Positions 2,490 to 32,365 of a DNA stretch of 64,000 nt are shown here, one piece after another (the first letter of the stretch is position 1; each line of letters begins with the position of its first letter). The notes beneath the pieces were generated by a model. It searched no databases and had not been told where the DNA came from. It saw only the letters and a program-made list of their open reading frames with translations. The stretch is from Trypanosoma brucei. Its lineage: Eukaryota. The position numbers and the translations under genes were made by a program. The stretch covers positions 1,184,001 through 1,248,000 of the forward strand of contig CH464491.1 in assembly GCA_000002445.1 (NCBI GenBank), given 5' to 3'.

Positions 2490-4415
2490 TCAAATCTCAC
2501 CCGTTTCACCATCGAGCGTCACCATGACAGCAGTTTCCTGCACATCATCCACCAAAACAACTCCTTCCGCCCCCTCACCAAACATACCGCGGTTTACCCT
2601 CAATCGAAGCGCACCACTCGCGTTATGAGAGAGCGCATCTACCTTCCGCGGGCACATATACAAGGCACCTCCGGCGCTAACGGGGCACCCTTGCCCTGCT
2701 GCTGCAAAGCACATCGCGCGGTCGGAGAGCCAAACGAATACTTTGGACTCACAATTGTCCGTTGTAATGAGTAACGGTTCGTCCTGCCCCACAGACGTAC
2801 TCGCGGTAGACCGACTTCCATCACCGCAGGACGCACTGCCACCCTGCGCCACCTTTCCCGTACCATCATCCCTCCCATGCCGAAGCGGCTGCATGTAATG
2901 GCGGCGCTGGAACTGCCAGTATTTCGAGTGTGGTGAAGGCGGCCAGTATAGTCCCACTGCATTCGCGCGGTGACATAAAACCGACAACACTCTCTGCTGA
3001 ACAACGTCAATCACAATAACAGTGCTGGGCCACAGCGGTAATATAACAGCTGCCAACTTCCCGGATGCACTGATTGCTGCCAGACCGGCAGCACCGAGCT
3101 CCTTGTCATCCCCAGCAGCTGCCCATCCGTCATACTTCCCTAGACACGCAACATCACTCGAGTTCCGCTTATCCCCTCCACTCAACTGTAAGAATTCCAC
3201 AAAAGACTTCTCCGGTGACGAAGGTTCTTCCATCACCGTTAGCTCCCCCATTTTAAAAGGAAGCACAACGTCAGAATCAAAAAAGATACGCCGTAATGCC
3301 ACTACCCGCTTCTTGGAAGCGATCACTGCACGGCATGCCCTTCCGAACACAATAAGAAGCACATTGCCACACTTCGAAGCAGTCACATTTCGCACACCCG
3401 TTGGCTCATAATGTAGCAAACGGGTGCCATCGTAAGTTGTAAGCGCAACGGAGCCTTGAGTGTAATCTACTAACGCGATACCTCCTTGAAGTGGAATGCA
3501 GTCCGAAACACAAGGTACAAATTTGGCAATTGAGAAGGCGTGAAGCCCCTCATGTGTCGTGGCCGACAGCACAACAAGCCACTCACTCCGCCTCTGAAAA
3601 CATTTAGAGTCGGCGTTAGTTTGTTCCATGGCCGCCTGTGACTGAAGAGCATCTTCGCTGGATGCCGAATGCACCGAATCCTTTTCCGCATGAACTGCCG
3701 AGAGTGGCGAGTGCAGTAGTTTCGGTGTTACATAGAACAGGAAGCGATGACACAAAGAGAACCGGATTAGGGCAGCCTCGCTGACAGGTTTGCCTGGCCA
3801 CAAACTACCGCCACTTCTATCATCACTTCCGACTTTTCTACCACCACTGCGAGAGCGGAGTGGCGACGCATTACGCTGTCCTTGTGACGGTACAGTCAGC
3901 CGCAGCCCTGCCAACTGGGCGGAGTACTTCACACCTCCCGGTAGTTGCATTAGCTGACTATCCAGGAGAGAAAACACATGCGCATGCAAAAGGCCAACCC
4001 AATATACTGCACGAGACGACGGGTGCCAATGCATAGCGCGGAGTCCCACCACCCCGGCATCCACGCGAGCTACGCAGATCTTTCCATACACACTCACAAT
4101 TTCTATAATTCCTCTTCGCGCCAGCAATAAGGCCACAAGCGTACTGTCAGGTGACCATTGAAGTTCGTGTATTTCATCGAGAGCTGTGTATTTTGATATG
4201 ACCGAATCGTTCCGACACGCGGGGGGCACGACATCACCGTTTGATACAGGGGGAACAACATCATTGGGCGTCGTGGCGGTTTCCCCCTTCAGCTGGCAGG
4301 TGCGGCGGACGTAGTCAATAAACACAACAACCAGACCCTTTTTGACTATTGCGTAAAGACTTCGATTGGGTGACAGTGCGCATAGTTTACCGTTGTCCAC
4401 AGCTAGCACGCGCAT
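2490..4415 (-). CDS. hypothetical protein, 641 aa, possibly beta-propeller/WD-like
   Basis: Long ORF with non-repetitive composition. Stretches such as WSPDSTLVALLLARRGIIEIVSVYG and HWHPSSRAVYWVGLL resemble WD/propeller blades, but no clean WD40 repeats are visible. Confidence 0.55.
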   Translation of the reverse strand: MRVLAVDNGKLCALSPNRSLYAIVKKGLVVVFIDYVRRTCQLKGETATTPNDVVPPVSNGDVVPPACRNDSVISKYTALDEIHELQWSPDSTLVALLLARRGIIEIVSVYGKICVARVDAGVVGLRAMHWHPSSRAVYWVGLLHAHVFSLLDSQLMQLPGGVKYSAQLAGLRLTVPSQGQRNASPLRSRSGGRKVGSDDRSGGSLWPGKPVSEAALIRFSLCHRFLFYVTPKLLHSPLSAVHAEKDSVHSASSEDALQSQAAMEQTNADSKCFQRRSEWLVVLSATTHEGLHAFSIAKFVPCVSDCIPLQGGIALVDYTQGSVALTTYDGTRLLHYEPTGVRNVTASKCGNVLLIVFGRACRAVIASKKRVVALRRIFFDSDVVLPFKMGELTVMEEPSSPEKSFVEFLQLSGGDKRNSSDVACLGKYDGWAAAGDDKELGAAGLAAISASGKLAAVILPLWPSTVIVIDVVQQRVLSVLCHRANAVGLYWPPSPHSKYWQFQRRHYMQPLRHGRDDGTGKVAQGGSASCGDGSRSTASTSVGQDEPLLITTDNCESKVFVWLSDRAMCFAAAGQGCPVSAGGALYMCPRKVDALSHNASGALRLRVNRGMFGEGAEGVVLVDDVQETAVMVTLDGETGEI

Positions 4416-5067: not shown

Positions 5068-8000
5068 TCAGTATCCACAAATAAGGGGTTCTCCACTGTT
5101 ATCTCCAGTTCCACCACACGGTAAAGGTACCAGGGGAGTGGCACAAGTCTCTACCACATCACCTGTTACGGTGGCAAACAGGGAAGCACACCCCGAGCCA
5201 TCGGAATCCCAAACTTCATGATATGTCACGCGGTGCTTAAGTAATGCGTTGCCTCCCATGAGGATCACCATCGCCTGAACCATGCACTGCATTTCAATCT
5301 CTGTTTGCTGGAAGAAGATCCCCAAATCAGTGGAGTTGTCGACCTCGTACGCCTCGCGAATGAAGTGTTGGGAGAGCCGCCCCACGTAACGTTTGATAGC
5401 CTGCCCCGCAACAAAATCTTGAGATGTAAATATCACAACAGGGTCTCCCGCCTCCAGTTCTCCCGGATCAGACGGAATTCGGCGCATTGGCTCATGAAGT
5501 AAATATCCACCACCCGCAACTTCCGACGAAATTGGTGTGGTCTCACACTGTTGGGCGTTAGACCTCGGTCGCCTATTTGTTTGGCTCCCCGTGGGTTTTA
5601 AGATATTTCCCACGAAAGCTGTGACTTTTGAGGCAAAGGTTCGTAGTTTGCGCCCTATGACGCCATGGCGCCTTCTGTTGTCACTGTAGAATTCAAACGC
5701 ATCGGAGGGCGCAGAAACTGGTGCGACGATCCTCTCGTTCCACCATTGAGCGGGATTTACTGCATCCACCTTGAAAACATACGGAAGCGTATAAGGTGCG
5801 TTGCTCATCGTAAAGACTCTCGGCTCAGCGTCCTGTGGCGCAGGCCCAGCCCCGCAGCTACTGCTTCCAAGTGGCGGAGAACGAAGTCCATCCACCATAT
5901 GTGTTTCTCCATGACTGTTCGAGCCGTGATCAACAGGTTTTGTGTCGGCGTCTAAATAACGCATGCATTCGCTGAAGGAGCGTTTCTCTAACTCCATCAA
6001 GCGGATTTGCTGCTCAGTCGTGCACGTCATGAGACATCCCTCCATTCGAAGATGTAGTTCTCCCGAATTCGGCTCGAAAAAGAAATCACACGCGTAACTT
6101 GTAACACAAAGTCTAGACAACGAAGAACGGCCACAGCGGCGTAGCGCCGCCCGGCACACTGTCTGGACATAGGAACGTTTGGCGTTAGCAACACATTCGC
6201 TAACAGTTGCTACCGCTGTGGCACCGTGATATGTCCGAGGAAGTGCGAAACGGGTGTTTAACACAACACGCTCCTGGGAACCGTACATATTTGCTGATTC
6301 CGGTACATACGGTATCGTAACCATCAAACTATCTTCAAACGATAGATCTCCGATCATTCCAAGCATCATCTCTGCCTCTTCTTCATCATCGATCTTGACA
6401 ATATAGTCTGTAGTTTTATCGGCTTTCCCAGCCCCACCAGGTTCGTGGTTGCTGCAAGACCCACCAAAAGATTCGTTGTCATCCCAATGGTCAGACATGA
6501 AATCATCCGCACAAACCTCAAAAGGATCGCAGGAAGAGTCTGAGCCACGTAGGTTGCTGTTAGCGAACCGGGCGCCAATGTTCATTGCGAGGCCACCCAG
6601 ACGATGATGCCGACTACGCCCAAGCTGCTCAGCTACAGCCTCGAGGCGAATTACAGACTCCTTGTTTCGTATTGCAGGGTCAAGCACCTCCACACGAGGG
6701 GGCGACGGCACGGGAAGACCCACAAGGCAGCAGCCCGTCCCCGTCAGCGTTCCAATAATGGTGTCGTGTGAAATGCTAAGGGTGATGCGAATACCAAAGA
6801 CGGCATTCAGTTTTTGGAACTTGAGATTGAAGAGAAGTTGTTTGTGCAAAGAATACTCAATGTACGGCAACGCTTGCGACACAGCAAGAGCGAGTCCAAC
6901 ACCACGAATTGCACTCTTTTCCTTCGTCACAACGGCCTGAACGAGCCGCGGTCGTTCTCTGTAAATGAGTTCCTGCGGCATCGCACATGATGTAAGAAGT
7001 ACTTCGGGTACCAACCTAGAGTGGCAGACATTGCACATAAATTGGTTTGCGTCCTCCTCTGTTGCATCCTTGTATCGCACCACTGGAGCGTATAGGTGGA
7101 GCAACGAGCACGCCTTTCTCGCGGCAAACCTTTTCCTCACTGATTGGTACAGAAGTTCCGGACCACAGCGAAGCGGGTGAAGTGTAAGATTAAGCATGAC
7201 AGCCGTGCCGAAAAGTGATAGCACCACCACGTCTTCGTGGTATAGCACCGCCTCCTCATAACCGATAACGACATTACAGTGAAAAGCACGAGCATTGGCC
7301 CTCAGCTCTTCCCGCAGTTCCATCCACCATGCATCGCGTTCTTGAGAAATGAGGTGTCTAGATTTCATCTTGGCTACGATCTTCACGGACATGGCACTGA
7401 TGTGACCACCGACGTGCTCTACGGTTCCGCAAGGCAGGTCCTTTACGGTCAATAAAAGGACGTTTGTTCGCATCCCCGTGGGTGCCGGTGGCAGCGACTC
7501 CATAGAAGGATTGTCTCCTCTCGTAGCGCCTGGTGAGTTGCTTTCATGTACGAAGGGTATGAGAGCGCTCGTCCCGTGAAAACTTGACGTCTGCTGCGCT
7601 GCAGTGGAGATGCCTAACCGTTGCTGTTGCGGTTGCTGCGCTGCTTGCACTGCTTCCTGTTCAAGACACCGGATATTCATGGCGACCACATTGTTACCAG
7701 CTAGGTCACCATGTCCAACAGCTGGTGGCATTTGTAGCGGTGTCGGCATGGAGCAATGCATAGCAACAGGCGAATCGCTCATGGGGGGAGTCAGCCTCTT
7801 CACTACCTGTATTTGTGCCGCTGGCACCGTATCTGCACCCCCTGGATCAACGAACTTCACTGCGGAGAGAACACATGGAGTGCCGTAGGCACGTACGATT
7901 ATACCGTTAGCCTCCATGTCAAACTCCTCTACGTAACCAAGTACTGCGTTGCACTGCATTTCCACCACCTTACGCGCCAACTGACGCCTAACTTTTCCAC

Positions 8001-8775
8001 TCAACTTGTACAGTTGAATGATGCGTGCTTCATTAGTGGATCGTGTGCTTCGCAGGTTCGTGAGTTTGGAATGCTCGGGGTCTGCCTTCACGATTAACTC
8101 CTCCACCATTGTAAGCATAGTCTCCACACGATACACGGAAGGGTCCAATCTCCACGCAGAAAAAATAAGAACTCCCTCATCCCCCATGGTGAAAGAGGGA
8201 TGTTGCGCCCGCGCTGCTCGCAGTGGTTCCAAATCGCTTGACATTTGCATAAAGGCGGCCGAAGGTACAGCTTGTGGCTGTTGACTGGTCTCCCCGCGAG
8301 TGTGGGGGCTCCTCGTGTTTTGTGGTGAAGGTAGTTTGCAGACGTACCGCTTAGGCAGACGCGGGGCTAGTGGATTCTCCGCTGTGTGAAACTTTATCTT
8401 TAGCGTAAGGCGAATCTCCCCCCGTATGCCTTCAGTGCTAGTGTCAAAGAGAGGGAACCAGCCACTCATGGAAGCATTGCTCTTCAGGACCATAGAATTG
8501 AGGTCCACAAAGGTGTGTCCCACGATGTCGTCGCGACTGAAAATGTCGTGGTCATAGACGCGCACTTCGAGCGGGTCCTCCTGCAAAACAAGCAGGTCCG
8601 GCGTGTCAAAGCGGAAAACTCTGTTCCATACGGGATGGCACGACATGCGGGAAATATCTGTAGTGTATTCAAGGTCATCGAGCTTCACCACAACGTAGGT
8701 ATCAGCGAGACCCGTTGTGCGGTCCATGACGGGGAGGTCACGCGCCTCATGTACGGTCACCGTCAGTGTTGCCAT
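5068..8775 (-). CDS. C2 domain protein, 1235 aa, with three YbjQ/DUF74-like repeats in the C-terminal half
   Basis: The N-terminus, MATLTVTVHEARDLPVMDRTTGLADTYVVVKLDDLEYTTDISRMSCHPVWNRVFRFDTPDLLVLQEDPLEVRVYDHDIFSRDDIVGHTFVDL, is a classical C2 beta-sandwich. Three repeats carry the YbjQ-like pattern: KVRRQLARKVVEMQCNAVLGYVEEFDMEANGIIVRAYGTPCVL, ELREELRANARAFHCNVVIGYEEAVLYHEDVVVLSLFGTAVML, and HFIREAYEVDNSTDLGIFFQQTEIEMQCMVQAMVILMGGNALLKHRVTYHEVWDSDGSGCASLFATVTGDVV. Confidence 0.8.
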   Translation of the reverse strand: MATLTVTVHEARDLPVMDRTTGLADTYVVVKLDDLEYTTDISRMSCHPVWNRVFRFDTPDLLVLQEDPLEVRVYDHDIFSRDDIVGHTFVDLNSMVLKSNASMSGWFPLFDTSTEGIRGEIRLTLKIKFHTAENPLAPRLPKRYVCKLPSPQNTRSPHTRGETSQQPQAVPSAAFMQMSSDLEPLRAARAQHPSFTMGDEGVLIFSAWRLDPSVYRVETMLTMVEELIVKADPEHSKLTNLRSTRSTNEARIIQLYKLSGKVRRQLARKVVEMQCNAVLGYVEEFDMEANGIIVRAYGTPCVLSAVKFVDPGGADTVPAAQIQVVKRLTPPMSDSPVAMHCSMPTPLQMPPAVGHGDLAGNNVVAMNIRCLEQEAVQAAQQPQQQRLGISTAAQQTSSFHGTSALIPFVHESNSPGATRGDNPSMESLPPAPTGMRTNVLLLTVKDLPCGTVEHVGGHISAMSVKIVAKMKSRHLISQERDAWWMELREELRANARAFHCNVVIGYEEAVLYHEDVVVLSLFGTAVMLNLTLHPLRCGPELLYQSVRKRFAARKACSLLHLYAPVVRYKDATEEDANQFMCNVCHSRLVPEVLLTSCAMPQELIYRERPRLVQAVVTKEKSAIRGVGLALAVSQALPYIEYSLHKQLLFNLKFQKLNAVFGIRITLSISHDTIIGTLTGTGCCLVGLPVPSPPRVEVLDPAIRNKESVIRLEAVAEQLGRSRHHRLGGLAMNIGARFANSNLRGSDSSCDPFEVCADDFMSDHWDDNESFGGSCSNHEPGGAGKADKTTDYIVKIDDEEEAEMMLGMIGDLSFEDSLMVTIPYVPESANMYGSQERVVLNTRFALPRTYHGATAVATVSECVANAKRSYVQTVCRAALRRCGRSSLSRLCVTSYACDFFFEPNSGELHLRMEGCLMTCTTEQQIRLMELEKRSFSECMRYLDADTKPVDHGSNSHGETHMVDGLRSPPLGSSSCGAGPAPQDAEPRVFTMSNAPYTLPYVFKVDAVNPAQWWNERIVAPVSAPSDAFEFYSDNRRRHGVIGRKLRTFASKVTAFVGNILKPTGSQTNRRPRSNAQQCETTPISSEVAGGGYLLHEPMRRIPSDPGELEAGDPVVIFTSQDFVAGQAIKRYVGRLSQHFIREAYEVDNSTDLGIFFQQTEIEMQCMVQAMVILMGGNALLKHRVTYHEVWDSDGSGCASLFATVTGDVVETCATPLVPLPCGGTGDNSGEPLICGY

Positions 8776-9120: not shown

Positions 9121-9235
9121 AAGGAGACACGCGGCAACCAAATGATAGCTTAAACAAAATAAGGAAACGCAAAGGCGAAAGCATCTCCCCACAAAGAGAA
9201 AATGGCAATAATTATAATTAGGAAATCTCTGCACG
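9121..9235 (-). promoter_or_regulatory. Polypyrimidine tract (coding strand) upstream of the C2 gene, adjacent to a G12 homopolymer
   Basis: The + strand is purine-rich: ggagacacgcggcaaccaaatgatagcttaaacaaaataaggaaacgcaaaggcgaaagcatctccccacaaagagaaaatgg. It lies about 350 to 450 nt upstream of the start codon at 8775. Confidence 0.4.
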
Positions 9236-9542
9236 CGGTCTCGAGGTAAAACGGTACTGGTAGACACTGAACTTGTGTTGCAGAGGAGATCCGATAATAC
9301 GCAAAGACGGCACGCCTCGGCACACACTGTAGAGTAACAAACGTAATACAGACAGCAAATGAAATAAAATTAAAAAGGGGGATGTTAAAGTGTAAAAACA
9401 CCAAGACTCCTGACATAATCAAGCGGCGGCAATGTAAAATAGAGATAACATCACGGTCATCTTCCTCTCCCCTCTTAAACCCGAAAAAAGCTAATGCCAC
9501 AAAAGTGGTTCTATTTCTCCCTACTTGGCCACACACGCGCCA

Positions 9543-9566
9543 ATATATATATATATATATATATAT
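9543..9566. repeat. (AT)12 microsatellite abutting the DUSP stop codon
   Basis: atatatatatatatatatatatat seen directly. Confidence 0.9.
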
Positions 9567-11095
9567 CAACTATTACGCTCTCCATAATTTAGTCGCTCCC
9601 GGGTTATTCGCATCCACATGGAACGCAACTCAGCGAGGAAGCATACCTGTGGATTCACAACGGGCCGTGCCCTCTGTAGACATTGCAGCAAACTCGAGAA
9701 GGAGAACACATGCATGTCACCATTGCCTGATTCGTCGCCAGAAGGAGCTGCATTGTTTGTAGGATCATCTGAATGTAGGGAACCTCTTTCACCTTCAACC
9801 ACCTGCTGCAAAGGTGTGCGAATCCGCCCCGCACATCTCCGTATGTAATACGCCATAATTATGCTCGGACTACGTGAAACGCCCTTTAAGCAATGTACCA
9901 ATACACCTGGGAGCACACAAAGGGTTGCTCGCAGAAAATCACTTGGTTCCAAATCGTTGCCTAGCAAAAGTACGAGTGGTTGAAAGCCGTCGCCGCGAGC
10001 AGGCCACGCAACATTGCTACTAATCTGTTCAGCTGCCTCAGTACAATCATCGTTGCGGGCAGCCGCAGTTTTGACAGCTCCTCTAGGTTCTTGCTTCTCT
10101 CTTGTTTTCTTCACCATCACTTCGGTGAGCCTGTGAAGTGCAACCAGCGCCTCCTTGGCAGCCGCGTCGTTGGGCTCAGAAACATTTTCTGATAGTTGGG
10201 ACCCGTTCGCGCCAACAGTGTTGGCAATATGAACGAGACACTGGAGAATAACCGTCGTCTCCATTACAACCGACGTCGCAGCATCGATAAGAAGATGCAT
10301 AAAATCCTCCACAACGTCAACAACGTCGGCTATCCGCGATGTGGCGTTATCTTCCATGGATATAGCAAAGTAATAGATCGGGACCGAAAGTACCGGAAGC
10401 TCCCCATCGAAAAAAAACTCCTCTTCCCTCAAGGGACTTGTCACAGTGTTGCAATCACTCCCGTTGTTGTCACCCTCAGAGCCGGCAACAGATTTTTCAG
10501 CCCTTTCAAGAGCGACTCGTCGACGCAGCAGCGAACTGATGCATACCAGTAAGCTGCGCAGGAATGTTCGCTCATATTCCTCCAATATTTCTCGAAGGTT
10601 GCGACCCCCACCCGCAGCCGTCAGGTTCCTATCAGAGTTGGGAACAAATGTGGGAAGTGACACGGGAACCACACGCAGCTTCAACTGTGCCAACGGCGTA
10701 TTCTCAAATAACATGCGGCTGTTACTCCTCTCGTCTACGAACACCGATTCCTTCGGCATCAACGGCGTACTTGAGGTGATGAGTACCCCGCGTATCCACC
10801 GATCCCTTGGTGATGCCACAGTTCCTGTTTGCTCTCCCCCTATGGAACATTCTACCGGACTCGCAGCCTCATGGAAAAGCAATCGCTCCGTCAAGTTACC
10901 ACTTTTTGCACCTGCAGCGCTGGTGAGGAAAACCCCTCCAGTCGAAGCTGTGGGGCAGTCGACCTCTTCCTTAAAGAAGGTGGAGTTCACAGCGTCAGAT
11001 ACATCGACAATACTGTCCCTGCGTTGCGACTCCAGCAACCCCTTAACAAGCTGCATCTGTTGCTCGTTCAGTTTACGATCATCGTCCCCCATCAT
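9566..11095 (-). CDS. dual-specificity protein phosphatase (DUSP-like), 509 aa
   Basis: VHCLKGVSRSPSIIMAYYIRR matches the CX5R catalytic loop (HCxxGxxRS) of the PTP/DUSP fold. Upstream acidic residues (NDLEPSD) are compatible with the general-acid region. The DUSP domain is C-terminal, with an N-terminal extension of about 380 aa. Confidence 0.8.
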   Translation of the reverse strand: MMGDDDRKLNEQQMQLVKGLLESQRRDSIVDVSDAVNSTFFKEEVDCPTASTGGVFLTSAAGAKSGNLTERLLFHEAASPVECSIGGEQTGTVASPRDRWIRGVLITSSTPLMPKESVFVDERSNSRMLFENTPLAQLKLRVVPVSLPTFVPNSDRNLTAAGGGRNLREILEEYERTFLRSLLVCISSLLRRRVALERAEKSVAGSEGDNNGSDCNTVTSPLREEEFFFDGELPVLSVPIYYFAISMEDNATSRIADVVDVVEDFMHLLIDAATSVVMETTVILQCLVHIANTVGANGSQLSENVSEPNDAAAKEALVALHRLTEVMVKKTREKQEPRGAVKTAAARNDDCTEAAEQISSNVAWPARGDGFQPLVLLLGNDLEPSDFLRATLCVLPGVLVHCLKGVSRSPSIIMAYYIRRCAGRIRTPLQQVVEGERGSLHSDDPTNNAAPSGDESGNGDMHVFSFSSLLQCLQRARPVVNPQVCFLAELRSMWMRITRERLNYGERNS

Positions 11096-11262: not shown

Positions 11263-12530
11263 GCAACTGCAATGGTCGCCATGCAATGTGGAAAATGAAA
11301 TTATTGGAAGGCTCGTCATGTAACAAAGGAAACATTGACTGCGCCCTACACGCATATGCGCAAAAACAGAAGGAAAAGGGAACGTTCAAATTTGTTAACG
11401 GTAACATAGGTTCACAACAGTGGTTGAGACACGAGAACGTGATGAATTGACCCAATAACTCCGCATGACTCTTTGTAACTCCCCCTCACACTACTTGGAG
11501 CATCTTTTAATTACGCAGCGACTCATATATATATATATATTTCCCCCTCCTCCAAAACCCCTCAGCTTCCGGCACACGACCATCAGGTGGTAGTGAATTC
11601 AAATGCCAAAACTTTACAAACCCATATAGGACCCTTCACCAAACGGGAGAGTGGCAAAAATATTTCGGCGGTATCACGCAATACAAACACCTTGTAATTG
11701 TAATAAACCCATTTCCTCCTATCTTTGTTTTGTTTTTCACATATGTGACGACCTCCTCCCTACTTCCTCCTAGAAACTTTTTTTTAAAGGTGCTCATGAA
11801 TAAAAAGGCACAAAAAGAGGAGTAGAAGGATGTACGAACCACATTTGTGGAGAATTTTGCACAGCCAAGGGTAATGCGATAACCCTTTCATATTTTCAAT
11901 GTGATTTTGAATTGTAGAGAGTTTTTTTTTTTATTCAGGATTGTTATTTTGTTAAAAACGAGCGGCAGCAAAAGTCAAACAAAGAAAAAAAAAAGAGACA
12001 AAGAACACAAACACGAAGGAATAGCAGTGCGATCCATTCTATTCTAGGCGCACGCTTGGTCAATAGGTGGGGAACTTTAAAAACAAAACAAGAGATCAAA
12101 AGCAGCAACAAAAAAAAACCTCTCGGCTTCACTTGATAAAAAAGAGAAACAAATACATGATAAGAATGGAAATGAATTTAGCGAAGAAGCGAAATCCACA
12201 CGGAGAAGATGACGAAGTGTGACAGTTTGCGAATGTTACCTTCGCTCGGCCAACTGTATCGAACACAAAAATAAATACGCACATACACCATTTTCTCGTT
12301 CATCCATTCATATTCTATAGTGCGGCCGTGGAGGAAGCCGACAGCAACATCGATGACTGAAGCAAATAAACAATATTCCACACATTGGAAGTTTTTGTTT
12401 GGATGTTTTCATCAAAGTTAGCAATCGTGCACACAGCGTGAACAAAGAAAAACAAAACATCAATAACGAAAGCAAAAGAGAAAACAAACAAAGAACAGAA
12501 AATATTTTCAGTTTGCCCCTCTTTCCCATT

Positions 12531-12577
12531 ACAAACACAAACACAAACACACACAAATATATATATGTATATATACA
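12531..12577. repeat. compound microsatellite (ACAAAC/CA)n followed by (TA)n
   Basis: acaaacacaaacacaaacacacacaaatatatatatgtatatatac. Confidence 0.85.
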
Positions 12578-12985
12578 AGCACAGTTAAGTAATAAAACCA
12601 AAGGGAGAGTAACATAGGAGTAGAGAAGTAAAAGAACAGGAATGCGTGAGGTTGTGTAAGAGAGAAAGAAGAAGGGAATGGGATCAAACGTTGGGATATT
12701 TTCGGTGGTCCGCTTCCTTCCCCGAGCATCACTCCAACAAATCCAATACTAAGAAAAAGCCACTGGCTCAAAAATATACTCCTTGGCATTTCTTCTTGTG
12801 ATACAAATTTTGGAAATGAGACAAACGACAATAGGTTGCCGCGCCCTATGGCGTCACACCTCACCACAAAGAAACACATGTGTGAGGAGGAATTAGAGTA
12901 ATGTCACGGGAAACATACGAGTAAAGATAAGCAAAGATATCATTACACCTTAAGAAGACACTTAAGCTGTTAGAAATATGAGTGT

Positions 12986-13002
12986 CTTTCTCTCTCTCTC
13001 TC
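12986..13002. repeat. (TC)8 microsatellite
   Basis: tctctctctctctctc. Confidence 0.85.
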
Positions 13003-13982
13003 TGAAGAAGAACAAGGAAGTGAAGCCGCATTCCTTTTGTTGTTGTAGTTGTTTTCCATTCGTGTATCCATGTGTATGTTATGAATTTTTTTTTACACCC
13101 TTATACCGTTGCTTCTTTGAGTATTTTCCCCCACTTCTTACAACCTCACCTCACTACTTGCTCTTAACTGCCTTCATTATCTCCCTTTCCCTCTGAGGTG
13201 CCGCTGCTGTTGTTTGTCTTACCTCTGGCTCCCCAAGACACTCAAAACAAAGGTGAAAAGAAAGGAAAGGTGCTCAGTTCAAGTTAGAGGCCTCATGCAC
13301 ACATACAAAAAAAAACAAAATAAAAACACATTGCTTGCCATGTCACCACGCGGTACAGATGTCTTATCTTCCATATCTCATTCGTTGGAAATAATTTCCC
13401 AACTGTAAGTCACCTCACAATTTCCTTATTTGGTCATTTCCTTTACACCAGGTAGATGCGAGAAAAGGGAAAGTTGGCACGTATACACAACATTAGAGGG
13501 AGGGAAAGGCATACGTGCCCCCATCCCTTCTTCCCTTTTCCCTTTTTCCCTCCAAACCCCGAAAATAAGAAACGAAGTGTTACTACCGTCTATGTTGCTT
13601 GCGGTCATCACGCGAATGAACAGTAAGGACGCGTAACCGGGTTCGTGTGTGTGCGTGTTGTTGTTGATGTTTTTTTTTTTCATTTGTGACGTTTTCCTTC
13701 CCATACCCCCAGTACACCCCCAGGTAATAATAACGGTAATTATATATTTATTTATTTAAATATGTAAATAGACGTATGAAAATTCAGCTTTCTTCCCAGT
13801 CATTCCACTCAATTGCACATCCCCCCATCCCCCGTACACAAATCTCTCTATCCGGTAAGGAGAAAATGACGGGGAAATGTTAAGTGTTCGGAGAAGTGTA
13901 GAGAGAGTTCATTATCATTTTTTTAAAAAAAAAAGTAAAATAAAACAAAATAAAATAGATACAATTATGATTGTGTTGTGTT

Positions 13983-14000
13983 GCTGCTGCTGCTGCTACT
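13983..14000. repeat. (GCT)6 trinucleotide repeat in an intergenic spacer
   Basis: gctgctgctgctgctgct. Confidence 0.85.
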
Positions 14001-28759: not shown

Positions 28760-31700
28760 TCACGAGCTACGTGCTGCACCCTTACGTTGCTCCCGGAGCA
28801 CCATAAGCTGTCCCATCATATCACTCACTTGCTGAACAGCGGAGAGTTGTTGCTGTGCCGCTGCACCTTTCGCTACTTGAATGAACTGCGCGGGTGGTGC
28901 GCTTGCTGCCGAGAGGGAACACAGATTAACGGCACTTAACAAAAGCGACCAAGCATTGCAACTGTCAATGGGGCTCACAAAATCAGCTTCGTCGAGCAAG
29001 TTTTCCTCCTCTTCATCGCACCCCGCGCCACCTTTACCATCCTTGCGGGCGGCAGCGGCTTCCATGAGAAGCGCCTGCAGGTGGCCCTCGTCTGCCATGC
29101 CATTAGCATCCAAATCGTCATCACTATCCTCACCATCGTCGTCCCACTCATCATCATCATCCTCATCCTCATCCTCAGCGTTGTCCACCAGATCGTCATC
29201 GAGGCCATCATTACTCCACTCATCTTCGCCATCATCACCAAGCTCAGGTTTCTTCGCTTCCTCCTCAGCCATCACGAGTTCAGCATGGCTAAAGTCCGTC
29301 AGCACACTGCTCTGGAGGACACCGCAAAGTACCTCGGCCACACAATCAGACATCTGTTGGTCTTTGGCGCACATTATTTGTGTGACGGAAGCAACCGTCA
29401 TAATGAAGAGACGACGATCGTAAGACCGCAGCATCGCTTGCAATTCCTTTCCCTGTACCAACTCTATGTAGTTCGCAAACAGTGGTACCAAGGCACCGGC
29501 AGAAGAGAGGGATCTAATGGCAAGATCCGGATCGGCGAGAATCGCAGAGAAGACGCTGTTCACGAAAAGTATTGTGAAGGTGCGTCGATGCATTTGCCTG
29601 CACTGTGGATCGTTCAAGACTCGAAGCGCCGTCTGTATCACATACTCAACAAGTCCTCTTGCTGCAGCAACCCGACTTTCACCTTCCTCTGGGTTCTTCT
29701 GTTTGAGTGACCAAAGATTTTGCAGCATGGAATCGTACATCTTGGGCACAGCAGCAAGCTCACTCAGACGCAAATCGCTTTCGTTGTTAAGCACAGTGTC
29801 GCACATTATACTGACGAGTTGCGCAGGAGTAGAATCGGCGACACCTGCTGCGAATGTCGGCACCTCGCAAAGTTCTTTCATGGGAAAACACAAGAATTCC
29901 CGTGGGGCAACACAAACAAAGTTGTCAAGTGGAGGCAGCATCTGGCTAAAGTAATCCACGGATCCTTGTGATACTAATTGATACAAGCACAACAAAAGTT
30001 TCCAAGTGCCAGTGGAAACAGCAGTGCTTTTAGATAGCACGGTGGTGAGAAGCATTAGCGTTGCATCCATGAAACCAAAACAACTACCACCTTCTTGCGC
30101 TAACACAGCAAAGAGCATCGGAGCTGTACGCTCCTGTATTTGCAAAAGTAAGTCATCAACAGGCTGGGAGCCAGGCGTGGAAACATTTGGTTGCGGGAGC
30201 GATCGAACGAGCGTCACGAGGGTATCGAGCACCTCGTCGGCGGCCATAATAGAATCAGAAACAGTGCTCTCACCAGCACCACCGAGCGTTTTGGACGATT
30301 TTTCACTATTGCAAGCATCAAGTGATTCCAAAACAGAGTCCGTATGTCCTTCTGAAAGGGCACGTCCCAACATTTGCTCAAAGTGTTGAGCGAGTACGTC
30401 CGTAAGCTGCAGAGCCCATTGCGACAGTGTTCTGCGGTAGTGCCGAATCGTTTTCCGAAGTGTGCGTACCACACCCTCATTGTCCATCATCCGCATAGCG
30501 CTGAAGTAGTTTTGAATAACCTCGCCGATAACGGGTGTTATCACTTCATGTGCAAATGGGTGGCATATAAGTGGTGCAAAACTTGAGCAAGCTTGGATGC
30601 GCACTGGCGGCTCGGCGTCCTGCAACAGTCGAAGTACCACATGAACAACTCGCTGGTACGCCTGAGAGCTACTCCATTTAATCTTGGGGGCCAGCACACT
30701 AAGTACAAGCGCACATCGTGCCCGGAGAATACCAGCGGGGTATGCCGCTGCGGGTATGATGTATTCGGTAATGAGCCACTCCACCCTCTCATTGGGAAAT
30801 CCGGCAACATCCAGCATACCACCGAACTGGTAAACAGCAAAAAAGCATGCGTCCACCACGCGAGATTCCTCCACAGCTCCACAAGCGGCCGCGGCCGAGT
30901 GGGTCGACAACTTCTCAAGAACAAAGTGCATAAAGTTTGTAAGAGCCAATGCGTCGTGGAACGGTCGCGAGGGTGTAGTGAGAGCCAAAATGAGACTACC
31001 AGACACGACTCGTGCACTGTACATATCTTCTTGAGGGTCAGTCTGCCGCCGAACGTACTCCACGGGGTTCGTTGACCAAAGCTCAGCATCTACAGAGGAA
31101 AATGCAAGCCGAGGAAACAGCAGCTGTGTGAGCAACTCTCCTGCGTTCGGAAACAATATTTGACGGTACACTGCACTGTGCTCGACAGCCAATGTAATTA
31201 TCTCAAGTGCCAAAATGTACGCCTTAGAAGTGACGATGCGCGGAGAGGCATGCCACCGAATAAATTCAAGTGCTTGTTGAACAAGCGGCAGCAGGATGTT
31301 TTCACAGAAGTACTTTGCAGAGCCCCTAGCGCGCGATTCGCACTTCTTAGGAAACATGAGTTCTTGAACCAACTGATAAGAAAGTCGGGTCACCCACTTG
31401 AGTAACTTCCATACAGCCGATTCGTCCGTAGTGGCGAGATCTACCTCGCCGTTCTCATCGTCTTCACAGCTACTGATACGATGACGGTAGAGTGGTAGCA
31501 GTGTTGAGTATGCTGCTTCCGACAATTGCACCACACAAACCCGGCAGAAATGTTCCATCTCAGGTCTTTCACAAAGAAAACGAGGCCACCGCGAGGCCGT
31601 GAGCTCGTGGAAACACTTAAGCACAATACGCAGGCAGTCGGTTAGCACCGTATGCAACGGCGATATTTCAAACGTAAGTGGCACTCCCGTCTGACACACC

Positions 31701-32365
31701 GCATGCGAATGTTGAAGCAACTCCTGTCCCCACGCAGAGCCCAACAGCTCCGCCAGAGACACCAGCGAAGGACCAATGCGGTCAACGAAATCGTCCACCG
31801 CCTCTGCGTCGACATTTATTGGATTATTGTAATACCTGCAGCAAGCAAGCAAAACGCCTAGTGCCGCCCTAAGCCTGGCGGCTGCTGTTTCATAAGGTGG
31901 TGTCGCAACAGCGCCCACATCGCTGTTAAGTACATTCACGCATTCATCGAGGATAGATGTTAACTGGGGCATAAGTGTTGGCCAAGACGCCGGATAGTCA
32001 TATGTGATAAGTTCTTGTGTGGTATCCAAGAGCTGTCGACGAACCGCGGGTGGAACATGCGATGAGCACTGCAGCGGCACTATACAATCACGTACGTTAG
32101 CCTTTACATTCTCCGTGAAGTATGATTGGCGGTTCCAGTCACTGCGACCTACCACGTTGCGTACACGAATAGAAGCTGCGTGCTGCGCGACTTGTGCTGC
32201 CGCACCGGCCTGTCGTAAGTCGTTGCAGGCAAACCGAATAAGTTGCGGGATAATATTGGGGTCGTTGGAGAGATTCGCCAGTGCCGTCTCCGCTTCCTTA
32301 CGCGTCGCTTTGTCCGCAGAGAGCGTGGCAGTAAATATTTGCACCAGCGTCTCTTCGTCCACCAT
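28760..32365 (-). CDS. importin-beta family nuclear transport receptor (importin-7/8/Nmd5/Sxm1-like) with an acidic C-terminal tail, 1201 aa
   Basis: N-terminal importin-N domain: ETLVQIFTATLSADKATRKEAETALANLSNDPNIIPQLIRFACNDLRQAGAAAQVAQHA. HEAT-like helical repeats run throughout. Poly-D/E tail: EDEWSNDGLDDDLVDNAEDEDEDDDDEWDDDGEDSDDDLD. Confidence 0.8.
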   Translation of the reverse strand: MVDEETLVQIFTATLSADKATRKEAETALANLSNDPNIIPQLIRFACNDLRQAGAAAQVAQHAASIRVRNVVGRSDWNRQSYFTENVKANVRDCIVPLQCSSHVPPAVRRQLLDTTQELITYDYPASWPTLMPQLTSILDECVNVLNSDVGAVATPPYETAAARLRAALGVLLACCRYYNNPINVDAEAVDDFVDRIGPSLVSLAELLGSAWGQELLQHSHAVCQTGVPLTFEISPLHTVLTDCLRIVLKCFHELTASRWPRFLCERPEMEHFCRVCVVQLSEAAYSTLLPLYRHRISSCEDDENGEVDLATTDESAVWKLLKWVTRLSYQLVQELMFPKKCESRARGSAKYFCENILLPLVQQALEFIRWHASPRIVTSKAYILALEIITLAVEHSAVYRQILFPNAGELLTQLLFPRLAFSSVDAELWSTNPVEYVRRQTDPQEDMYSARVVSGSLILALTTPSRPFHDALALTNFMHFVLEKLSTHSAAAACGAVEESRVVDACFFAVYQFGGMLDVAGFPNERVEWLITEYIIPAAAYPAGILRARCALVLSVLAPKIKWSSSQAYQRVVHVVLRLLQDAEPPVRIQACSSFAPLICHPFAHEVITPVIGEVIQNYFSAMRMMDNEGVVRTLRKTIRHYRRTLSQWALQLTDVLAQHFEQMLGRALSEGHTDSVLESLDACNSEKSSKTLGGAGESTVSDSIMAADEVLDTLVTLVRSLPQPNVSTPGSQPVDDLLLQIQERTAPMLFAVLAQEGGSCFGFMDATLMLLTTVLSKSTAVSTGTWKLLLCLYQLVSQGSVDYFSQMLPPLDNFVCVAPREFLCFPMKELCEVPTFAAGVADSTPAQLVSIMCDTVLNNESDLRLSELAAVPKMYDSMLQNLWSLKQKNPEEGESRVAAARGLVEYVIQTALRVLNDPQCRQMHRRTFTILFVNSVFSAILADPDLAIRSLSSAGALVPLFANYIELVQGKELQAMLRSYDRRLFIMTVASVTQIMCAKDQQMSDCVAEVLCGVLQSSVLTDFSHAELVMAEEEAKKPELGDDGEDEWSNDGLDDDLVDNAEDEDEDDDDEWDDDGEDSDDDLDANGMADEGHLQALLMEAAAARKDGKGGAGCDEEEENLLDEADFVSPIDSCNAWSLLLSAVNLCSLSAASAPPAQFIQVAKGAAAQQQLSAVQQVSDMMGQLMVLREQRKGAARSS

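Follow-up and report, generated by a model that had tools for sequence, protein, structure and literature searches.

Three groups of described proteins bear on the structure of a gene located at positions 5068..8775, on the minus strand, of a 64,000-nucleotide stretch of the Trypanosoma brucei genome (contig CH464491.1, positions 1,184,001 to 1,248,000; hereafter the window). The first is the C2CD5 or CDP138 family (human Q86YS7; PF00168, PF23025, PF23028 and PF23128), whose domain order, a C2 domain and then five modules, is the same as that encoded here, and which has in common with the trypanosome protein a Cys/His cluster between modules 2 and 3, the ligand aspartates of the C2 domain and the signature loops. 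The second comprises the bacterial YbjQ proteins (UPF0145 or DUF74; PF01906; structures 1y2i, 1vr4, 2gtc and 3qkb), single-domain chains of approximately 100 amino acids (aa) with five chains per assembly, which crystallise as homopentamers (PMC2954204; PMC4092069); the trypanosome protein instead carries five diverged copies in one eukaryotic chain, together with a C2 domain, at an identity of 10-20%. The third group, the synaptotagmins and ferlins, displays the same pattern of aspartate ligands in its C2 domains, but the trypanosome protein has only one C2 and the remainder is an unrelated, non-C2 part; nor did we notice a transmembrane anchor in it, no formal test for one having been made. 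Judged by its sequence, the gene is the kinetoplastid orthologue of C2CD5.

The open reading frame (ORF) is uninterrupted, with an ATG start, 1235 codons and a stop within the coordinates, and constitutes a complete, intronless coding sequence for the C2CD5 orthologue of the T. brucei group (1235 aa plus stop). Its product is 100% identical to a 'putative C2 domain protein' of T. equiperdum (P0001) and shares a 90% cluster with T. b. brucei TREU927 XP_828493.1 (UniProt Q386A0, 'hypothetical protein, conserved') and T. b. gambiense XP_011779621.1, while the family alignment places its N-terminus collinear with those of homologues starting at Met1. PF00168, PF23025 and PF23128 are already precomputed for the trypanosome protein in public databases, and a scan of the protein against NCBIfam returned only XapX, at chance level (E 0.02). 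Animal C2CD5 proteins were matched collinearly over their full length with E values of approximately 1e-84 to 1e-70. Other homologues come from Trypanosoma (53-67% identity), Leishmania, Phytomonas, Bodo and Euglena, and further afield from Dictyostelium, oomycetes, a labyrinthulid, a dinoflagellate, early-diverging fungi and Capsaspora; the animal members are named C2CD5, and each species has one copy in the list of matches.

The correspondence extends to individual modules. Hidden Markov models (HMMs) of the five modules each found one strong cognate position in all ten lineages sampled, and the modules occur in the order 1-2-3-4-5 in 108 of the 124 proteins retrieved, although the HMMs were themselves built from 50 of these same 124 sequences. 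The other 16 have at least one module below threshold (several carry the label partial or variant), and in no case are modules added or reordered. An architecture of the C2CD5/CDP138 type, which an earlier reading of the locus (the original prediction) had raised as a possibility, is therefore borne out by the shared domain order and by cognate modules in sequence. Since each module has a single cognate position across lineages, the five appear to be individually orthologous across the supergroups sampled, and the duplications that produced them probably took place before the last eukaryotic common ancestor. The trypanosome protein does depart from C2CD5 elsewhere: it is longer (1235 aa against approximately 1000-1040), with longer low-confidence linkers; its module 4 has diverged too far to be recognised by Pfam YbjQ_3; its module 5 matches YbjQ_4, very strongly, in place of YbjQ_2; and its Cys/His cluster reads C-x3-H...CxxC where C2CD5 has CxxCH...CxxC.

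The C2 domain occupies residues 3-109 (8449..8769; this and all other features of the gene lie on the minus strand) and was recognised by Pfam (E 1.3e-23; 83.6 bits, cut-off 22), confirming what had been suspected of the N-terminus. The nearest solved C2 domains by sequence are those of dysferlin, myoferlin and the synaptotagmins (E 5e-17 to 1e-12). Five aspartates (D18, D25, D75, D77 and D83), and with them S80, fall at ligand positions; the aspartates align with those of the loop motifs in the C2A domain of synaptotagmin-7, positions that we take to be calcium ligands. The set is kept throughout the family alignment, and conservation of D18, D25, D75 and D77 is at least 90% among 50 homologues. 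By this alignment, none of the aspartates that serve as calcium ligands in calcium-dependent C2 domains is missing from the trypanosome domain.

The remainder of the protein was originally read as three repeats of YbjQ type within the C-terminal 700 aa, marked by the motif '..CNAV.GY...G..V...GTAV.L'. The motif is real, in three copies (CNAVLGYVEEFDMEANGIIVRAYGTPCVL at 275-303, CNVVIGYEEAVLYHEDVVVLSLFGTAVML at 500-528 and LNAVFGIRITLSISHDTIIGTLTGTGCCL at 656-684), each falling within a significant match to YbjQ_2 (PF23025), the three stretches of which total 219.9 bits against a cut-off of 29.1. These three segments are only part of the whole, however, as there are five modules in total, including a YbjQ_4 match at 1116-1210 and a divergent module at 790-943; and the location was misplaced, the motif-bearing segments lying at approximately 200-690 and the five modules spanning 200-1210. 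Of the two Pfam models originally proposed as a check, C2 (PF00168) gives a significant match, but the bacterial model YbjQ_1 (PF01906) gives no match on the trypanosome protein at E<=1, while fish C2CD5 scores 27.9 bits with it.

Module 1 (residues 201-305; 7861..8175) matches YbjQ_2 with E 2.2e-22 when scanned as a fragment and is modelled as strand-strand-helix-strand-strand with a predicted local distance difference test (pLDDT) score of approximately 90, excepting a flexible internal loop at 238-241 (<50). Module 2 (residues 437-529; 7189..7467; fragment E 9.2e-27) is the best conserved, with V464, W484, E486, R488, E490, C500, Y506, E508 and G523 invariant in the alignment. When its family profile was compared with PDB sequences, the top two matches were the bacterial YbjQ structures 1y2i (E 0.06) and 2gtc (E 0.7), in both cases with the signature in register. 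Module 3 (residues 589-684; 6724..7011) matches YbjQ_2 with a fragment E of 1.1e-16 and has an AlphaFold2 pLDDT of 92-96. Profile-to-profile comparison relates modules 1 and 2 with 96% probability (E 1e-9), 1 and 3 with 89%, and 2 and 3 with 80%. Module 5 (residues 1116-1210; 5146..5430) is matched by YbjQ_4 (PF23128) with E 3e-65 and aligns with module 2 over 93 columns (hhalign, 87% probability, E 4e-6). Its score of 217 bits with YbjQ_4 compares with 23-38 bits for the C2CD5 proteins of animals, Capsaspora, slime moulds and oomycetes (P0051, P0047, P0034), and the last module of the fish protein matches both YbjQ_2 and YbjQ_4, the former fitting better. PF23128 thus behaves like a model built mainly from kinetoplastid sequences, so that module 5 falls within the reach of both YbjQ_2 and YbjQ_4.

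Module 4 (residues 790-943; 5947..6408) is divergent and was recognised from structure prediction only. An acidic stretch, IDDEEE, leads into the module, which also has an additional C-terminal helix. Pfam finds nothing in residues 685-1115 of the trypanosome protein, with no match to YbjQ_3 at E<=10, yet the module sits where other eukaryotes have YbjQ_3 (PF23028), which is present in the homologues from outside the kinetoplastids. Scans of fragments of fish C2CD5 identified four YbjQ_2 stretches, corresponding to modules 1, 2, 3 and the C-terminal module, and YbjQ_3 at position 4, from which the canonical C2CD5 emerges as a C2 domain plus five YbjQ-like modules. A YbjQ_3 HMM made from non-kinetoplastid homologues misses the kinetoplastid module 4 and instead cross-matches module 3 weakly. 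Conversely, an HMM of kinetoplastid module 4 alone matches the Euglena protein (P0030) at 726-810 (E 2e-4), overlapping the region of the same protein (749-836) that is matched by the non-kinetoplastid YbjQ_3 HMM with E 5.5e-11. Direct alignment of module 4 with YbjQ_3 by hhalign is in register over 81 columns, but weak (39% probability, E 3e-4). Together, the Euglena bridge and the hhalign comparison provide a weak but consistent sequence link to YbjQ_3; according to the structural model, a module of YbjQ fold is present at position 4.

That model was produced by AlphaFold2 for residues 190-1235 from the 50-sequence family alignment. It contains five strand-strand-helix-strand-strand modules, at approximately 203-305, 439-528, 579-682, 791-943 and 1114-1211, such that the YbjQ fold, a defining feature of the bacterial YbjQ/UPF0145 proteins, is present in the trypanosome protein; a test of the repeats for this fold by structure prediction had originally been proposed. 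Mean pLDDT is 72, and the 31% of residues below 50 are nearly all in linkers (325-435, 732-787 and most of 954-1111). The first of these, at residues 325-435 (7471..7803), is rich in Pro, Ala, Ser and Gln, has a pLDDT <50 and shows no conservation in the alignment. A second region, at residues 944-1113 (5437..5946), is rich in Pro, Ser and Gly with a few predicted helices and a pLDDT mostly of 34-58; it has no Pfam match and, by profile-to-profile comparison, no similarity to any module. The predicted template modelling (pTM) score of the single chain is 0.74, where by our rough estimate independent modules would give approximately 0.2 and one rigid body approximately 0.7. A score this high despite so many low-pLDDT residues indicates a confident relative placement of the ordered parts, and the occurrence of five modules in one chain, set beside the homopentamers of bacterial YbjQ, suggests a single-chain pseudo-pentamer. 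We infer from the model that the five modules pack as one rigid body, for which a pseudo-pentamer is the simplest arrangement. Extended to the family, the idea is that C2CD5 proteins are pseudo-pentamers in which five duplicated and specialised modules are ringed like bacterial YbjQ, stapled by zinc and tethered to membranes by C2, and that this arrangement, dated by the constant order of five modules in the lineages sampled, predates the last eukaryotic common ancestor; we would give this full statement an even chance. We found no publication describing a C2CD5 pseudo-pentamer, and C2CD5 and YbjQ appeared together in one paper only, in a domain legend.

The original prediction of a membrane-recruited oligomeric scaffold must consequently be revised, since the single-chain score and the five modules make the assembly probably intramolecular. 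A version of it would have the modules as beads on a string, each pairing with modules of other copies, so that many molecules would build an oligomeric lattice on the membrane. Bacterial YbjQ subunits do associate between chains, and the flexible linkers between some modules are long (111, 56 and 170 residues). Yet the pTM score points to a confident mutual arrangement of the ordered parts within one chain, and the number of modules is fixed at five from Discoba to animals, when a simple multivalent string would tolerate variation. We regard the lattice as unlikely, though it is the best of the alternatives to an intramolecular core.

Between modules 2 and 3 lies the Cys/His cluster, C556-x3-H560 ... 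C581-x2-C584 (7024..7110), which is not covered by any Pfam model matching the trypanosome protein and is a candidate metal (zinc) site. Each of the four residues is at least 90% conserved among 50 eukaryotic homologues, the corresponding columns read CxxCH...CxxC in animals and fungi, and the region has an AlphaFold2 pLDDT of 67-88. We consider it a candidate structural zinc site inserted between the two modules. The cluster adjoins the modules, Pfam describes bacterial YbjQ_1 as 'putative heavy-metal-binding', and a selenium-binding pentamer (2jz7) belongs to the same fold class, all of which could be taken to mean that the YbjQ-like core serves chiefly to sense a ligand or metal, and that trafficking phenotypes are secondary. 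However, the metal-binding label of YbjQ is a prediction, for which we found no experimental support in the literature seen; the cluster is located in an inter-module insert outside the YbjQ fold, where it resembles a structural zinc site; and published C2CD5 phenotypes all concern vesicle or receptor trafficking, making a primary sensor improbable. Least credible by a wide margin is an independent kinetoplastid fusion of C2 with bacterially acquired YbjQ-like domains, for while PF01906 is mainly bacterial, YbjQ_3 is undetectable in kinetoplastid proteins and their YbjQ_4 scores far exceed those of animals, such bacterial acquisition is effectively refuted by the position-specific orthology of modules, with one cognate position for each HMM in every sampled lineage, and is contradicted also by whole-length collinearity, by shared non-repeat features (the Cys/His cluster, an IDD motif, a DPEH...R..R..NEAR loop and a VPEV motif) and by the Euglena protein that bridges YbjQ_3 and kinetoplastid module 4.

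The explanation towards which we lean, with rather more than even confidence, is that the C2CD5 orthologue is a cytosolic, peripheral-membrane trafficking factor with a five-module core tethered by C2. In this mechanism, a rise in calcium would cause the C2 domain to bind acidic phospholipids, bringing the core to the membrane, where it would act as a platform for a late vesicle step (insertion and fusion, or endocytosis), as has been reported for mammalian C2CD5. Exocytosis and endocytosis in trypanosomes take place at the flagellar pocket, which would be the target membrane. Since the trypanosome protein has no RxRxxS motif, it must be regulated otherwise than by the insulin-Akt2 route of mammals. 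In the family alignment, RQRLIS197 of fish C2CD5 aligns with RIIQLY256 (residues 251-256; 8008..8025), and the motif is absent here as it is from Dictyostelium, Saprolegnia and Capsaspora. Ser197 of mammalian C2CD5 is, we presume, the Akt2 phosphorylation site, and Xie et al. are said to have described it as such in 2011. Its absence from these lineages suggests that Akt input is an addition of the animal lineage and does not define the family.

Several points weigh against this explanation. Calcium binding by the C2 domain is deduced from conserved ligands, a ring geometry is no more than suggested by the module count and the single-chain pTM score, and the hhalign link between module 4 and YbjQ_3 is, as stated, weak. 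The trafficking role of C2CD5, in vesicles and receptors, is known from mammalian data only, and even there one group found GLUT4 translocation to be unaffected by CDP138 knockdown (PMC3744946). Our literature search found no paper that links C2CD5 to kinetoplastids or names the T. brucei accessions, and none, mammals included, that says what the YbjQ-like part does.

The pairing of C2 with YbjQ-like domains is already in Pfam, and so the finding is the correct identification of a known family member; what is newly added is modest, namely the Pfam-invisible module 4, the conserved Cys/His cluster and the idea of a pseudo-pentamer. Nevertheless, a T. brucei gene annotated only as 'hypothetical' or 'C2 domain protein' can now be named as the C2CD5 orthologue, while the coincidence of the five-module count with the number of subunits in the bacterial pentamer, along with the Cys/His cluster, offers structural hypotheses for a mammalian protein of relevance to metabolic disease. 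T. brucei is genetically tractable, has a single site of exocytosis and endocytosis and is without the insulin-Akt layer, and so could help to find the core function of the family.

All ORFs of at least 250 aa in the window are on the minus strand, a layout that fits a trypanosomatid polycistronic unit; the window contains no tRNA genes and no other non-coding feature bearing on the locus. The upstream neighbour (9566-11095, minus strand, 509 aa) is matched by a dual-specificity phosphatase model over a 24-residue active-site stretch only, with VHCLKGVSRS (of HCxxGxxRS type), and scores 31.3 bits where the Pfam cut-off is 33.5; its product is a highly diverged phosphatase or else carries large insertions. 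The same transcription unit contains, farther along and all on the minus strand, genes for a legume-like lectin of ERGIC-53/VIP36 type (19573-21270; listed with a GTG start, the true ATG probably being downstream), a U-box protein (23811-25703) and a DHHC palmitoyltransferase (27109-28524). Gene order within trypanosomatid polycistrons is not normally functional, and the clustering of membrane-traffic and modification genes near the C2CD5 gene is probably a coincidence. Two other minus-strand ORFs, at 2490-4415 (641 aa) and 28760-32365 (1201 aa), match no Pfam family at E<=0.001 and probably encode kinetoplastid-specific proteins. Between genes, GC-content falls to 0.395 at 12001-14000, against approximately 0.50, and a short simple repeat that translates as IYIYIYIY occupies the intergenic region at approximately 9150-9570, upstream of the C2CD5 gene; the GC trough and the repeat both fit intergenic sequence of trypanosomatids, and the short ORFs listed there are artefacts.

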